From: Candidatus Anderseniibacteriota bacterium
GTDB taxonomy: Bacteria; Patescibacteriota; Andersenbacteria; UBA10190
Length of the DNA stretch: 64,000 nucleotides
Assembly: GCA_016197005.1 (NCBI GenBank)
Contig: JACPWO010000004.1
Coordinates: 6,305 to 70,304 of the forward strand
Reading direction: 5' to 3'
Shown piece after piece: positions 36,723 to 45,228 of this stretch. Position numbers and translations under genes: made by a program. The notes below the pieces were generated by a model. It worked only from the letters and a program-made list of their open reading frames with translations. It was not told the DNA's origin and ran no database searches. The stretch's first letter is position 1; each line of letters begins with the position of its first letter.

Positions 36723-37744
36723 AAGGATTTATTCGAGCAGTCGTAGGGTTAACTATTATTCTTCTTACCTTAGCAGCCGGCGGTGTATTTCTTTTAGCGG
36801 CACCACTGCCTGGTGCACCAAGTCAAATACAAGGCGTTTCTTTTTCTGCGCCGCACGCCAGCGGCATTGGTCTTAATTGGCAGCAGACATACATTGCTGT
36901 GCTTGATGACTTAGGCGTACGACGTCTGCGCCTATCTGCGTACTGGGATGTAACGGAGCCGCAGAAGGATATGTTTTCTTTTGCAGATTTAGATTTTCAA
37001 ATGGATGAAGCGGCCAGTCGGGGGGCCCACGTCATTTTGGGAGTGGGTCGCAAACTTCCGCGCTGGCCAGAATGTCATGACCCGCAGTGGGCAGCAGAGC
37101 TCACCGAGCAAGCAAAGCAGCAAGAAGTTTTAGAGTTAGTTGAGGCAACAGTAGAGCGTTACAAAGGTCATCCGGCGCTGGCGATGTGGCAGCTAGAAAA
37201 CGAGCCACTGCTAAAGTTTGGGATTTGTCCGCCTCAAGATCGACAGTTTTTGATGCAGGAAGAGGTGCTCGTGCGATCACTTGACCCTGATCACCCTATT
37301 CTTATGACCGATTCAGGAGAGCTCAATTGGTGGCTTGATGCATCTTCCTTCGGCGATGTACTAGGAACGACGATGTACCGCACTGTATTTTCCGAAAAGA
37401 CACTCAAGCAGTTCAGCTATGATTACATCTTTCCTTCCTGGTTATACCGACTCAAGAGTCGATACGTCAGGTTACTGCGAGGGAATGAAGTATTAATTTC
37501 TGAACTGCAGGGTGAGCCGTGGGGCAGTCAGCCCTTTCCACAGATGTCAGCGCAGGAGCGCGAGCAATCTTTTTCACCGGAGCGTTTCTTAGACAACTGG
37601 GATTTTGCGCAGCGCACACAACTACCTTCGGCATATTGGTGGGGAGTGGAATACTGGTACTGGGAGAAAGAAATAAATGGCGACGGACGATATTGGGAAA
37701 TTGCGAAGGAGGTATTTGCGCGCAATAATAAAAAAAATAATTAA
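36719..37744 (+). CDS. Membrane-anchored TIM-barrel glycoside hydrolase-like protein (GH5/cellulase-superfamily-like)
   Basis: An N-terminal TM helix is present. WQLENEP gives an NEP acid/base-like motif. The beta/alpha alternation is consistent with a TIM barrel. Confidence 0.35.
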   Translation: MKGFIRAVVGLTIILLTLAAGGVFLLAAPLPGAPSQIQGVSFSAPHASGIGLNWQQTYIAVLDDLGVRRLRLSAYWDVTEPQKDMFSFADLDFQMDEAASRGAHVILGVGRKLPRWPECHDPQWAAELTEQAKQQEVLELVEATVERYKGHPALAMWQLENEPLLKFGICPPQDRQFLMQEEVLVRSLDPDHPILMTDSGELNWWLDASSFGDVLGTTMYRTVFSEKTLKQFSYDYIFPSWLYRLKSRYVRLLRGNEVLISELQGEPWGSQPFPQMSAQEREQSFSPERFLDNWDFAQRTQLPSAYWWGVEYWYWEKEINGDGRYWEIAKEVFARNNKKNN

Positions 37745-37768
37745 CTCAACAAAGCCATAAAGGTACTA

Positions 37769-37797
37769 TTGACATTTTAGTAATTTATGACTATAAT
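37769..37797 (+). promoter_or_regulatory. Perfect-consensus sigma-70 promoter TTGACA-17-TATAAT driving the DGR target gene
   Basis: Both hexamers match consensus exactly and the spacer is 17 nt. The promoter lies 138 nt upstream of the start codon. Confidence 0.55.
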
Positions 37798-37829
37798 TAG
37801 CAGTTCTTTATAATAGAATATCACTGTGT

Positions 37830-37882
37830 ATGAGACGAGTATTTTGCAGTTTTTTTGTAAGACTCCAGAATACTCGTCTCAT
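37830..37882 (+). promoter_or_regulatory. Perfect 14-bp inverted repeat ATGAGACGAGTATT-N25-AATACTCGTCTCAT in the 5' UTR of the DGR target gene
   Basis: The repeat was seen directly in the sequence. It lies between the promoter and an AAGGAG SD. It is not followed by a U-tract, so it is not a terminator. Confidence 0.4.
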
Positions 37883-37935
37883 CAGAGATTGGTCGTTTCC
37901 CGACGGTTCGGGTAAGTTCTTCTACAAGGAGAAGG

Positions 37936-38841
37936 GTGATGACGATGACCACATCGATCACATCCGGTCAGAAGGTTCAGTACTTGAGAATGGTCGAAGA
38001 CGCTGCACGACGTGCAGCCAATTTGGCCCTTGAGAAGGTTGAAAGCCTCGACAAGACAGGTGCACAGCGACTGATCGAGCATGGCGACGAATTCGAGACA
38101 GCAATTGCCGAGCTCGTGGTTGCTAAGACGAGAGAGTTATCTCTCTCCAATCAGTTCGCCAACGAAGAAGTACCGTCAAACTACGGCTACCTCTCCGGCT
38201 ACAAAAAGCCGAAGGGCATGACCGAACAGACCAATCTTCTTCGTCAGCTTTTCCCTGGTATCGGTTTCGCCGACGAGCAACTGGCTACGCGCGACCTGCC
38301 GAAAGGTGCTGAAGGCTACTTTGCCATTCCGCGTTGGGAAACGTTGGCACCGACCTATGGCGAAGCCGTGCAGAAAGTGCTGGATATGATCAAAAAAACC
38401 CGCAACGGTAAGCTTTACAACTACTGTGAAGGGAAACTTGGTCCGCAGTATCTGCGTCAGCACGCCAAAACGTCAAAAGCGTTTCAAGTGCTCGGTGATC
38501 AACAAAAGGGCTACGACATTCTCGTGGTACCCTGCCAGTTTGGTCTCCGTCACAGAGGTCGTTCAGTGCGCCGAGCACGAGAAGTCATGATCGCCAGCGA
38601 ATTTGCTCTCGGAGCTTTCGCGAACGGCATCATGATTTTGACTCATCCGGAACGTCTTCAACACGATAACGATCTTTGGATCGACGGTGGTGGCGACGAA
38701 TTTTCTCCGGATGCCGGTGGTCGGTTCGACTTCGCGCCTAGCTTCGTCTTCGATGGTGGCAGGGTCAGGTTCGACGCGTTCTGGGTCCTCTATGCCCTTG
38801 ACCTCTATGGCTCTCCGTCTGGGTTCTGTCCGCAGAAGTGA
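37936..38841 (+). CDS. DGR target (variable) protein; the C-terminal approximately 45 aa are encoded by the variable repeat
   Basis: The 301-aa ORF's 3' end is a near-copy of the downstream TR, with differences only at TR adenines. The C-terminus reads ...GSPSGFCPQK. The GC content is visibly higher than that of neighbouring genes. Confidence 0.75.
   Translation: MMTMTTSITSGQKVQYLRMVEDAARRAANLALEKVESLDKTGAQRLIEHGDEFETAIAELVVAKTRELSLSNQFANEEVPSNYGYLSGYKKPKGMTEQTNLLRQLFPGIGFADEQLATRDLPKGAEGYFAIPRWETLAPTYGEAVQKVLDMIKKTRNGKLYNYCEGKLGPQYLRQHAKTSKAFQVLGDQQKGYDILVVPCQFGLRHRGRSVRRAREVMIASEFALGAFANGIMILTHPERLQHDNDLWIDGGGDEFSPDAGGRFDFAPSFVFDGGRVRFDAFWVLYALDLYGSPSGFCPQK
38704..38835 (+). repeat. DGR variable repeat (VR)
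   Basis: The VR aligns to 39218..39350 with about 23 mismatches, all at positions where the TR has A. The final 28 nt are identical (CTATGGCTCTCCGTCTGGGTTCTGTCCG). Confidence 0.8.
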
Positions 38842-38894
38842 TGCTTGTTCCTTGAACGCTTGGATCTTTTGTTTTCTTGATCCTTCGCGTCGAC

Positions 38895-38930
38895 GGGGTT
38901 TTCCACAGTTTGGAGACCCCGTTTTCTTTT
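38895..38930 (+). terminator. Hairpin plus U-tract downstream of the VR (intrinsic terminator; DGR targets commonly carry a hairpin 3' of the VR)
   Basis: GGGGTTTTCC-loop-GGAGACCCC forms a 9-bp stem with 2 G-U pairs and is followed by GTTTTCTTTT. Confidence 0.5.
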
Positions 38931-39217
38931 ACTTAATTTTTCTTAAACCATATATACTCATCTTCGAGTTAAGCTCATGTACGACCGTTTACGGATTGTC
39001 GTCGTTTACACTCTTTCTCTTCACGAGAAAAAGCCAGAATCCGGCTGATCACGCGTTTGCCGGAGCGAGCTTGTACGAGGAGATACTGCTTGTCTTTGCT
39101 CAAGGCAAACTTCGCTAATAAGCGGGGTGTTGCCACAAACAATACAGGAATAAGAGGCGTTCACTGATGCCTAGCATCGCCACCTCAAGTTCCAGTGACT
39201 CAGATAGGCAAAGACAA

Positions 39218-39350
39218 ATATCCGGATGCCGATGGTCAGTTCGACAACGCGCCTAACTTCAACTTCAATGATGGCAAGGTCAAGTTCGACACGAACTGGG
39301 TCAACAATGCCAATGACAACTATGGCTCTCCGTCTGGGTTCTGTCCGAAG
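39218..39350 (+). repeat. DGR template repeat (TR), A-rich with many AAC/AAT codons
   Basis: No ATG-initiated ORF is present. An in-frame TGA lies at 39164-39166 upstream. Asparagine-like AAC/AAT triplets occur wherever the VR differs. Confidence 0.8.
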
Positions 39351-39366
39351 TCTCTCCTTATATAAA

Positions 39367-39393
39367 GGCATCCATAGACGGATGCCTTTTGTT
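39367..39393 (+). terminator. Perfect 7-bp hairpin GGCATCC-ATAGAC-GGATGCC plus TTTTGTT immediately 3' of the TR
   Basis: The hairpin was seen in the sequence. It may terminate a TR transcript and/or the antisense avd. Confidence 0.45.
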
Positions 39394-39736
39394 ATCTAAT
39401 TGAACGGCTCCATCCGCCGAGTTGTCGGCCGATCTCATCAATAATTTCTTGCAACACAATGTATTTTTTGTTGTCGAGCGTTTTTGTATCTTTCATGAGA
39501 CGAACCAATAGTCGGAGTAAATTCAGTTTGGCACTGATCTGCTCAAGAGTTGTGGCTTTATTCACGGTTTTCGCATAGCCAGCAAGAAAAAGGTTTTCAA
39601 TAATATCCAGGATGAGTCGCTCACTCCACTCATAAATTGTAAAGCGATCTTGTTTCGGCACAGTCTTACGGTACTCGTGAAAAGTTTTGTAGAGTTCGTA
39701 GGCTTTCTTAAGAATAGGAATATCGCTATCGTTCAT
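39392..39736 (-). CDS. avd: Accessory variability determinant (Avd), a four-helix-bundle protein of DGRs
   Basis: The 114-aa protein aligns by eye to Bordetella phage bAvd: VPKQDRFT~IPRKHGVA, ENLFLAGYAKT~ELFIVAGKSNQ, LLRLLVRLM~LRFWLRFLAG, QEIIDEIGRQLGGWSRSI~QVLIAEVGRILGSWI. Confidence 0.7.
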   Translation of the reverse strand: MNDSDIPILKKAYELYKTFHEYRKTVPKQDRFTIYEWSERLILDIIENLFLAGYAKTVNKATTLEQISAKLNLLRLLVRLMKDTKTLDNKKYIVLQEIIDEIGRQLGGWSRSIR

Positions 39737-39741
39737 AGGCT

Positions 39742-40817
<1,076 letters not shown>

Positions 40818-40926
40818 ACTACAAAACTGTTTTTGCGAAGTGACAGTCATCACTTTTCTTTCCTCTTTGGCCTGCTACACTTTATATTATAGATGCTTAT
40901 TCCATGAACGAAGGAGGTGACGGTAT

Positions 40927-41145
40927 ATGATGAAAGATACAAATTTACAGTTGTGGGCAGCCGTTCTACTTCTGGTTGGCGGCCTTGTTCACCTGATTCC
41001 AGCGCTCTATACCGCTCTGTCTAATCTGACAGGAGGCACGCCTTGGATTCAGATTATCGTTGGTATCTTGTCCGTGATCGTCGCGTTGGTGATGTTCGCT
41101 GGGGACAAGCCAAATTCTGGTTCAAACGCAGGATCTGGAATGTAA
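40927..41145 (+). CDS. Small two-TM membrane protein, hypothetical
   Basis: 72 aa. The SD GGAGGTGA precedes the start. Two hydrophobic helices are present. Confidence 0.4.
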   Translation: MMKDTNLQLWAAVLLLVGGLVHLIPALYTALSNLTGGTPWIQIIVGILSVIVALVMFAGDKPNSGSNAGSGM

Positions 41146-41211
41146 TATCGGCTGTAAAAAAGACGAGCCTTCCTGCTAGGAGGGCTCGTTTCGTTTTGGT
41201 ACAGTTACAGC

Positions 41212-43391: not shown

Positions 43392-44462
43392 ATGCAAGAT
43401 ACTATTCGGCGCAATGTTCCCTTGGCGCCTTTAACCACAATTAACCTGGGCGGGCCAGCTCGTTTTCTTGTCGTGTGCAAAAACGAAGAGGATATTCGTC
43501 GTGCTCTAGCACTATCTCACCAAGAAAACGTTCCTCTCCATATTTTAGGCGGGGGAAGCAACACTGTATTTGCCGACGAAGGATTTCAAGGCGTCGTTGC
43601 GAAGATAGAACTTAAGGGCCTTACCTTTACGGAAGAAAATGAAACTGTACTTGTATCTGCAGCGGCGGGAGAAGTATGGGACGAAGTTGTTCAGGCGTCT
43701 CTAGCAAAGGGGTTGGCGGGTATTGAATGTCTGTCGGGTATTCCGGGATTAGTAGGGGCTACTCCTATGCAGAATGTTGGTGCATACGGACAAGATGTAG
43801 CGGAAACAATTGAAGACGTTACGACGATTGATCGTAGAACCGGGAAGTCAGTAACGTTTACAAATGCAGCATGTACATTTGCTTACCGGGTTAGTCGATT
43901 CAAAAAAGAAGATCTAGGTACCTACATTGTTACCAATGTTCGGTTTCGGCTGCGTCGAGATGCAGTACCAACGATTCGTTATCCACAAGTCCAGGCACAG
44001 TTGGAAAAAATGTATGGCACAGTCGATATAGGTACAGGACAGGAAGCTTTAGAGAAAGTGCGAGAGACGGTACTGCACCTGCGCCGGAGCAAGTCAATGG
44101 TAGTTAATCCATCTGATCCTCACTCTCGCTCGTGTGGTTCTTTCTTTACTAATCCCATTATTTCCGCCGAAAAAGCTAAATTGGTGCAAGCAACACAATC
44201 AGGACAGCAAGGATATACGGTCAAAGGAGGCGTGAAAATGTCAGCTGCGTGGTTGGTTGAGCAGGCCGGCTTTGCGCGCGGTCAGCGTTTTGGAAATGTT
44301 GGTATTTCACCGAATCATTCACTGGCTTTAGTGAATTATGGTGGAACGACCAAGGAGCTCTTAGCAGTAGCAACTACGATTCAAAAAAAAGTGAAAGAAC
44401 TTTTTGATATTACGCTTGAATTGGAACCAGTGGCGGTATTACCTCATAATTCGGTACAGTAA
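43392..44462 (+). CDS. murB: UDP-N-acetylenolpyruvoylglucosamine reductase
   Basis: The FAD-binding segment GGGSNTVFADEGFQGVV is present. The typical C-terminal substrate domain is present. Confidence 0.8.
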   Translation: MQDTIRRNVPLAPLTTINLGGPARFLVVCKNEEDIRRALALSHQENVPLHILGGGSNTVFADEGFQGVVAKIELKGLTFTEENETVLVSAAAGEVWDEVVQASLAKGLAGIECLSGIPGLVGATPMQNVGAYGQDVAETIEDVTTIDRRTGKSVTFTNAACTFAYRVSRFKKEDLGTYIVTNVRFRLRRDAVPTIRYPQVQAQLEKMYGTVDIGTGQEALEKVRETVLHLRRSKSMVVNPSDPHSRSCGSFFTNPIISAEKAKLVQATQSGQQGYTVKGGVKMSAAWLVEQAGFARGQRFGNVGISPNHSLALVNYGGTTKELLAVATTIQKKVKELFDITLELEPVAVLPHNSVQ

Positions 44463-44469
44463 CGATATG

Positions 44470-45228
44470 TCTGCTGAAAAAACAATGTTTGCTGCTGAGG
44501 TTAAGAATCTCACGGTAGATATTAATAGTCATCGTGTTGTGAGTGATGTCTCTTTTACTGTGCCGGTAGGATCAACCACGGCAATCATTGGCCCGAACGG
44601 TGCTGGTAAGTCAGTCTTATTAAAAGCGCTACTGCGACTTCTGCCCAAAACATCGGGGGATGTGAAAATATTTGGCATTCCTCACGAAAATTACAAAGAA
44701 ATAGCCCCCCTCATATCGTACATTCCACAGCGCCTCGCTTTTGATGATCATTTTCCGCTCACGGTAAAGGGATTATTTGAACTTAAGTCGCCACGTCCCA
44801 TCGGAATGTCAGTCAGTGAGCGAACACGCATGGAAGAAGTACTCGAACTTGTCAGCATGCGCACACATTTGCATGAGCGTTTGTCTGAATTGTCTGGTGG
44901 ACAGCTGCAGCGTGTCCTTATCGCCTACAGTTTAACTGATCACCCGAAATTACTATTCTTAGACGAACCATCAGCGGGAATTGATGTTCAAGGACAAGAA
45001 ACTATTTATGCTCTGCTTGATCGTATTCGGCAGGAAGAGAAGTTAACCATGGTACTCATCAGTCACGAATTAGAAATTATTATGCAGTATGCAGATCAGG
45101 TGCTGTGTTTAAATCAGCGACTACTGTGCGCAGGGGCGCCACAGCATGTTCTGACGGATGATTTATTAAAAGAAATGTACGGTACGGGAGTAGAAAGATA
45201 CGAACATAGTCACCCTCACCATGATTGA
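44470..45228 (+). CDS. Metal (Zn/Mn-type) ABC transporter ATP-binding protein
   Basis: Walker A is GPNGAGKS. The ABC signature is LSGGQLQRV. Walker B is LLFLDEPSAGID. The gene pairs with the ABC-3 permease. Confidence 0.75.
   Translation, partial: SAEKTMFAAEVKNLTVDINSHRVVSDVSFTVPVGSTTAIIGPNGAGKSVLLKALLRLLPKTSGDVKIFGIPHENYKEIAPLISYIPQRLAFDDHFPLTVKGLFELKSPRPIGMSVSERTRMEEVLELVSMRTHLHERLSELSGGQLQRVLIAYSLTDHPKLLFLDEPSAGIDVQGQETIYALLDRIRQEEKLTMVLISHELEIIMQYADQVLCLNQRLLCAGAPQHVLTDDLLKEMYGTGVERYEHSHPHHD

Follow-up and report, generated by a model that had tools for sequence, protein, structure and literature searches.

What does a diversity-generating retroelement (DGR) amount to when its reverse transcriptase (RT) gene is broken by a simple repeat? 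This question is raised by a locus in a 64,000-nucleotide (nt) stretch (the window hereafter; contig JACPWO010000004.1, positions 6,305 to 70,304, forward strand, assembly GCA_016197005.1) from a metagenome-assembled genome of Candidatus Andersenbacteria, a member of the candidate phyla radiation (CPR/Patescibacteria). An earlier note, made from the letters of this DNA, had described a variable repeat (VR) and a template repeat (TR) that carry the signature of DGR adenine mutagenesis. We followed up that claim, and we are confident that the locus as a whole is best explained as a chromosomal DGR of Ca. Andersenbacteria whose RT is out of frame at a perfect (GA)17 tract.

We computed an alignment of the VR (38704–38835) and the TR (39219–39350), which lies 380 nt downstream of it. 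The two copies align without gaps over 132 nt at an offset of 515, and a repeat search of the window paired 38706–38835 with 39221–39350 at 83% identity. The earlier note, working by hand, had the end of the TR right at 39350 but began it one base early, at 39218 rather than 39219. Its central observation, that mismatches occur only at template adenines, was borne out when we tabulated the mismatches by TR base: all 23 lie opposite a TR adenine, leaving none for TR C, G, or T (TR to VR: nine A>G, nine A>T, and five A>C). Given 34 adenines among the 132 nt of the TR, the probability that all 23 would fall at an A by chance is 2.8e-14 (binomial) or 9.5e-18 (hypergeometric). Seventeen codons differ between VR and TR; the codon pairs listed earlier were correct except that TTC/AAC and CTC/AAC (VR/TR) occur twice each, not three times. 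Read in the frame of the VR, TR adenines are found at codon position 1 (13 cases) or position 2 (21 cases) and never at position 3, and ten TR codons are AAC or AAT. This is the classic design of a DGR template: adenines at codon positions 1 and 2 (AAY codons) give maximal amino acid (aa) diversity without creating stop codons. The TR itself is non-coding, with no plus-strand open reading frame (ORF) of at least 60 aa spanning it, and no second VR for it was found in the window when both strands were matched at the 98 non-A TR positions. We also considered extending the repeats in the 5' direction to 38692/39207, which adds six mismatches, five of them opposite TR adenines and the sixth opposite a TR C. 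The extension was rejected because it covers the GDEF residues, which are (nearly) invariant in the target family, and because the sequence upstream of the TR is simply A-rich. The 12-nt stretch concerned (38692–38703 and 39207–39218) is still alignable, and is probably a relic or a chance similarity rather than active template.

The VR forms the end of a 301-aa target protein that belongs to a family of more than 2,000 proteins, 60–70% identical, whose named members come from CPR bacteria. We recognised neither a domain nor a transmembrane segment in the target, and it matched no Pfam, NCBIfam, or PHROG family; a Foldseek search of its model against the PDB gave no match with E <1. Its C-terminal part probably adopts a C-type-lectin fold. 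We then mapped the TR codons onto an alignment of 88 sequences, the target and 87 homologues. Where the TR codon contains an A, the top residue of a column has a mean frequency of 0.39, as against 0.84 where the TR codon is A-free and 0.83 in the rest of the protein (Mann-Whitney P = 2e-7). Across the whole family, then, diversification falls exactly where the window TR has adenines. Some homologues (P0002, P0011, and P0012), at 370–480 aa, carry a second, partial or full copy of the conserved core; in these, the first core copy is not followed by the typical VR pattern.

The genes around the repeats bear out the earlier identification of a DGR in which the downstream, A-rich copy is the template. 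A target gene, a non-coding TR, an avd gene, and a DGR-type RT gene all surround the pair, in the order target-TR-avd(reverse)-RT. The Avd protein was identified by PF22296 (bAvd; 3e-17) and phrog_3206 (2e-20), while its score against NF033474 (DivGenRetAVD) was 77.5 bits, below the cut-off of 80. Both halves of the RT match RVT_1, the closest match among solved structures is the Bordetella phage bRT (8ub7; E 1.3e-42), and the DGR motif [I/L]GxxxSQ is present as GIPIGNLTSQ. The start codons of avd (minus strand) and RT (plus strand) lie back to back, 5 nt apart (39736–39742). Hence, either each promoter must sit within the opposite gene, or RT transcription continues from the TR through avd in antisense. 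We have high confidence that the element is a complete, genuine DGR cassette: the adenine-only mismatches, the cassette parts with their order, and the match of TR adenines to hypervariable family columns are all direct observations.

The RT gene, however, is not open throughout, a point that the earlier note had overlooked. Its reading frame breaks at the (GA)17 tract, which is the only dinucleotide repeat of at least five units in the 64-kb window. Loss of one unit or gain of two, giving (GA)16 or (GA)19, yields a single full-length RT ORF. The repeat encodes Arg-Glu in all three frames, with no stop codon in any. In the alignment to bRT the tract falls at a break, with 26 residues here versus 7 in bRT, and in a model of the repaired RT this stretch has a predicted local distance difference test (pLDDT) score below 50. 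Because the tract lies at a break in the bRT alignment and is modelled with such low confidence, changes in its length would probably be tolerated. The lack of an intact RT reading frame in the window bears on present activity, not on the identity of the element as a DGR. As assembled, with the RT out of frame inside (GA)17, the element most likely makes no RT at present and its VR is frozen. We considered whether the two halves could act as separate polypeptides, and rejected this since the sole start codon of the C-terminal half (ATG 40392) lies downstream of the IGNLTSQ motif. A role for the GA tract as a Shine-Dalgarno-like re-initiation signal was set aside by reasoning alone, as it has no GG core.

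The same tract length is found in a second assembly. The (GA)17 tract is shared by the window and GCA_016178385.1, and two NCBI accessions carry the identical frameshifted 207-aa RT product. Because the two sequences are not the same elsewhere, they count as two assemblies that agree on 17 units. Specifically, the window and JACOTL010000003.1 of that assembly differ by one substitution (40980), and two segments, 43958–44173 (216 nt) and 44574–44608 (35 nt), are absent from the latter. These segments fall inside a murB-like ORF and an ABC-transporter ATPase ORF and may reflect either assembly collapse or real deletions; MurB is 356 aa in the window and 284 aa in GCA_016178385.1. Two Logan contigs (k = 31) end inside the tract and are uninformative on its length. 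All four assemblies examined have one and the same VR consensus, and an invariant VR, compared here at the consensus level, would fit an RT that is currently off.

To place the tract in context, we assembled two samples of related loci. The genome sample consists of 80 loci from a scan of species-representative genomes, with RTs 47–70% identical to that of the window. These are mostly Patescibacteria (Paceibacterota, Saccharibacteria, Parcubacteria, Peregrinibacteria, and others), and a few have another or no taxon label. Nearly all 80 share the layout target-TR-avd(reverse)-RT, with the avd start abutting the RT start on the opposite strand. For 57 of these loci, one to three VRs could be paired with a TR just upstream of avd, with at least 80% of the mismatches at template A. 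Seven loci (L015, L034, L036, L044, L048, L062, and L075) have two or three VRs in tandem target genes per TR, and the window has a single target. Among protein sequences, an (RE)n run stands at the tract position in 23 of the 120 closest full-length RTs, and a short ..LFERKG.. linker with a GAGAGA-type seed takes its place in the rest. Across 637 kb of RT-centred genome loci we found ten dinucleotide repeats of at least seven units, nine of which are GA tracts. Six of these lie at the RT-gene site. The other three have 9–11 units: L010 5082–5099 and L019 5049–5070 immediately 3' of the RT match, and L049 2581–2600 in the interval from avd to the TR. GA repeats thus seem to cluster in DGR cassettes more generally.

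The second sample came from metagenomes, searched with a pattern of (GA)8, then 4–34 nt, then PxGNLTSQ-coding DNA. This pattern is blind to the upstream frame and returned at least 120 loci; the counts that follow are among the matches listed. By tblastn of both RT halves, 18 loci were in frame and 87 out of frame. Independently, and in agreement, tracing of open frames placed 16 loci in frame and 70 out of frame (86 loci), with the three frame relations represented by 16, 27, and 43 loci. A stricter set, which required at least 450 nt open upstream and at least 390 nt open downstream, retained 74 loci (71 clusters at 95% identity); the frame is kept in 15 of them and lost in 59. Because both halves are open in this set, the only lesion detected is the tract. 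The in-frame share is 20%, compared with 33% if the frame were neutral (binomial P = 0.02, with loci that are not fully independent). One group of near-identical loci shows both states: L085 and L124 have an (AG)9 tract and are out of frame, and L110, with one unit more, (AG)10, is in frame. Their flanks do not differ at all over 600 nt (100% identity), and identity over 3.4 kb of the loci is 97.8%.

How might such an element work? By analogy with the Bordetella phage BPP-1, the TR (39219–39350) would be transcribed as a short RNA ending at a hairpin (39364–39389), and an RT-Avd complex would copy this RNA into cDNA, misincorporating opposite template adenines. The cDNA would then replace the VR (38704–38835), guided by the A-free 3' block that both repeats share. 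Each replacement could recode up to 22 A-containing codons on the ligand-binding face of the 301-aa target, with its probable C-type-lectin fold. To this we add a tentative proposal, the reading of the tract that we favour over its rivals and to which we give at most about the same weight as to its negation: the (GA)n tract may be a slipped-strand contingency locus, at which gain or loss of units switches the RT, and hence hypermutation, on and off within the population. In most cells the RT would be off and the VR stable; rare slippage would restore the frame and set off a burst of diversification. The broader version, in which a hypermutable (GA)n in the RT gene makes targeted hypermutation phase-variable in a large share of CPR DGRs, we judge a little short of an even prospect.

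Several observations speak for the phase-variation proposal. As in contingency genes, (GA)17 is a perfect repeat within an ORF whose unit changes shift the frame, with a loss of one or a gain of two restoring it. Polymorphism in unit number between on and off states, with otherwise intact genes, was found in the relatives only; this population has 17 units in both assemblies. The in-frame share of 20% versus 33% implies no selection keeping the consensus in frame, whereas the intact RT halves imply selection to keep the gene. This combination is typical of contingency loci and is no proof of switching. Other observations weigh against the proposal. The tract has the same length in both assemblies of this population, in a comparison made at the consensus level, and the invariance of the VR likewise holds at the consensus level only. 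A share of 20% in frame is close to the neutral 33%, and would fit drift of a dispensable gene or recoding as well. Lastly, we found no sigma-70-like promoter for the TR.

We weighed these proposals against four other explanations. That the repeats are an ordinary duplication that diverged by neutral drift is an idea we give practically no credence: a direct repeat does exist, but nothing more speaks for it, and drift is refuted by 23 of 23 mismatches at the adenines of one copy, with those adenines restricted to codon positions 1 and 2, by the adjacent Avd and DGR-type RT, and by the same pattern in 57 of 80 related loci. The frameshift could instead be an assembly or sequencing error in a low-complexity tract, leaving the DGR intact and active. 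Dinucleotide runs are prone to PCR stutter, and both Logan contigs (k = 31) break inside the tract; yet the frameshifted 207-aa product stands under two NCBI accessions, and two differing assemblies agree on (GA)17. An error would also have to recur in 59 of 74 related loci from many projects, presumably with different assemblers. The out-of-frame tracts of these relatives, at 16–43 nt, are judged shorter than the largest k-mers usual in such assemblies. Since the VR consensus is moreover identical in four assemblies, we find an artefact quite improbable.

Decay and recoding are each somewhat less improbable than an artefact, although we still consider both unlikely. A dying DGR would have an RT pseudogene and a VR left as a frozen relic, with no switching, and both the frameshifted RT and the invariance of the VR across assemblies agree with this. 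Against it, stop codons are absent from both RT halves, Avd is intact, and the TR has kept its design, with no adenine at position 3 and no mismatch at other bases than adenine. In addition, the tract is the only detected lesion in 59 of 59 out-of-frame relatives, and near-identical sequences one unit apart are on in one case and off in the other. Recoding at (GA)n, by transcriptional slippage or ribosomal frameshifting, would yield a full-length RT and make the genomic frame irrelevant. It gains from the nature of the tract, which is stop-free and reads Arg-Glu in all three frames so that a 2-nt tRNA slip re-pairs perfectly, and from the occurrence of all three frame relations among the listed matches. 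A programmed shift would, however, favour one frame relation and not both, and length polymorphism was observed directly at the DNA level (L085/L124 versus L110). Furthermore, recoding on dinucleotide repeats is not known to us from any bacterium.

We next examined the 3' boundary of the repeats, where the earlier note had reported 28 identical nt; these are confirmed (38805–38832). It had also suggested looking there for a GC-rich element like the initiation of mutagenic homing (IMH) site. We found a block of 24 nt that is A-free and identical in VR and TR (GGCTCTCCGTCTGGGTTCTGTCCG); it is 64% GC and not a pure G/C run. At the base that follows it (38833/39348), VR C (codon CAG, Gln300) stands opposite TR A (codon AAG). 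The same difference, ..CG CAG in the VR and ..CG AAG in the TR, is present in the window and in all 14 relatives comparable at that codon, and in the relatives the TR ..CG AAG is usually followed by T and a CTCTCC-like motif. Given this recurrence and the 93% conservation of Gln300 in the target family, this 23rd mismatch may be a fixed IMH/IMH* difference that coincides with a TR adenine rather than a product of mutagenesis. The earlier attribution of the mismatches to adenine mutagenesis therefore stands as a pattern, with a possible exception for the 3'-most one, whose possible IMH/IMH* nature had gone unremarked. Strong selection for Gln is an alternative to such a marker for the recurrent CAG/AAG difference.

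Downstream of the TR, two further features are shared with relatives. A CTCT or TCTC lies within 12 nt past the TR in 34 of 55 relatives, compared with a 6% background. In 50 of the 55, as against 6% of shuffles, the TR is followed at a median distance of 14 nt by an unbroken stem of 8 bp or more (median 13). The structure of these hairpins is conserved, while their stem sequences differ between loci. The closest hairpin past the VR is terminator-like and begins 57 nt downstream. Judging by its position, the hairpin at 39364–39389 would act on the avd strand too. In this CPR lineage, we infer from such patterns that the TR RNA may be a discrete short transcript that ends at a hairpin common to the convergent avd. 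The TCTCTCC motif and the 39364–39389 hairpin might play a part in cDNA priming. The CTCTCC-like motif and the GAGAGA repeat unit of the RT gene are complementary. An Rfam scan of 37500–41200 returned chance-level miRNA matches only, with no known RNA family at the TR region. The coordinates of all features are collected in the table.

Features of the DGR cassette in the window and of tract-bearing related loci.
Feature	Position	Strand	Description
Promoter-like site upstream of target	37769..37797	+	TTGACA-17-TATAAT, 12/12 match to the sigma-70 consensus; consensus match alone
DGR target gene	37936..38841	+	301 aa, VR at C-terminal end
Variable repeat (VR)	38704..38835	+	Codons 257–300 of the 301-aa target, within its last 46 codons
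IMH-like 3' block	38809..38832	+	24 nt, A-free, VR = TR
Terminator-like hairpin after target gene	38892..38923	+	
Template repeat (TR)	39219..39350	+	34 A, none at codon position 3; 10 Asn codons
TR-specific TCTCTCC motif	39351..39357	+	Directly 3' of TR
Hairpin between TR and avd 3' end	39364..39389		Strong, 10-bp stem, terminator-like on + strand
avd accessory gene	39392..39736	-	114 aa, opposite strand to TR and RT
DGR RT gene, split in two frames	39742..40817	+	
RT N-terminal half ORF	39742..40365	+	Stop falls within IGNLTSQ-coding sequence
(GA)17 tract, perfect	40293..40326	+	Point of RT frame break
RT C-terminal half with GIPIGNLTSQ	40344 to stop 40817	+	+2 frame
Related loci with a tract at the window RT position			L084–L203, L004, L006, L029, L053, L078, L082

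We compared the element with known systems. CPR/Patescibacteria DGRs are said to have been first surveyed by Paul et al. in 2017. The window shares with CPR DGRs a CPR host, a chromosomal cassette, the order target-TR-avd(reverse)-RT, a target without recognisable domains, and an RT that clusters with CPR RTs (47–70% identity). Its TR/VR pair is no different from theirs. Wu et al. 2018 (PMC5758913) describes one arrangement of avd and TR, architecture B3, in 90% of CPR DGRs, and the window layout probably corresponds to it. Roux et al. 2021 (PMC8144416) places the CPR DGR lineage in clade 2 and classes DGRs as active or inactive by VR diversity. A frame-breaking (GA)n is mentioned neither in Roux et al. 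2021 (PMC8144416) nor in Wu et al. 2018 (PMC5758913), where a frameshift is mentioned only for VR indels.

The BPP-1 DGR (mtd-avd-TR-brt), the prototype for the mechanism, has in common with the window adenine-specific TR-to-VR substitutions, an AAC-rich TR, Avd, an I/LGxxxSQ RT, and a target gene with the VR at its 3' end; the C-type-lectin fold of the BPP-1 target is probable for the window target as well. In the window, unlike BPP-1, avd sits on the opposite strand, flanked by TR and RT; the TR appears to be a short transcription unit of its own with a terminal hairpin and no spacer into RT; and the IMH-like block, with no A and 64% GC, is not made up of G and C alone. The window element is cellular, whereas BPP-1 is phage-borne, and where bRT has a 7-residue linker the window RT has about 19 residues more, including the RE run. 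The C-type-lectin DGR proteins Mtd, Treponema denticola TvpA, and archaeal AvpA have no sequence-level family match to the window target, and the N-terminal helical part of the target and its conserved core (QFGLRHRGRSVRRA, LTHPERL, and DLWIDC.GDE) have no known counterpart.

Like the contingency loci of Haemophilus, Neisseria, and Campylobacter, the tract is a perfect short-unit repeat within an ORF in which a change of unit toggles the frame; in both cases, on and off alleles occur in nature with genes that are otherwise intact, and near-identical sequences lie one unit apart. The contingency-locus genes known to us encode surface structures or restriction-modification enzymes. The switch in the window would differ in controlling the engine of a targeted hypermutator, and in belonging to an uncultivated CPR bacterium.

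The genes that flank the cassette are ordinary chromosomal genes: an EamA transporter, a glycoside hydrolase, a methyltransferase, a leucyl aminopeptidase, MurB, and an ABC transporter ATPase with an ABC-3 permease. A G8 homopolymer at 796–803 is the sole long homopolymer of the window.

By itself, the TR/VR pair adds one more ordinary example to the many CPR DGRs already catalogued, a well-known type, and changes nothing. What sets the locus apart is the frame-breaking GA tract: in the literature that we searched, the scope of which did not extend to Paul et al. 2017, we came across no account of a repeat that toggles the frame of a DGR RT gene. The RT is split in about 80% of the tract-bearing loci among the matches listed, and pipelines for finding DGRs that require a full-length RT ORF could miss such cassettes. 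To our knowledge, the regulation of DGR activity is poorly understood. If the phase-variation proposal is true, a contingency repeat at this place would give a DGR a simple, heritable means of being turned on and off, and would explain how diversification could alternate with stasis. The tract would then be a second-order bet-hedging switch on top of a first-order diversity generator.

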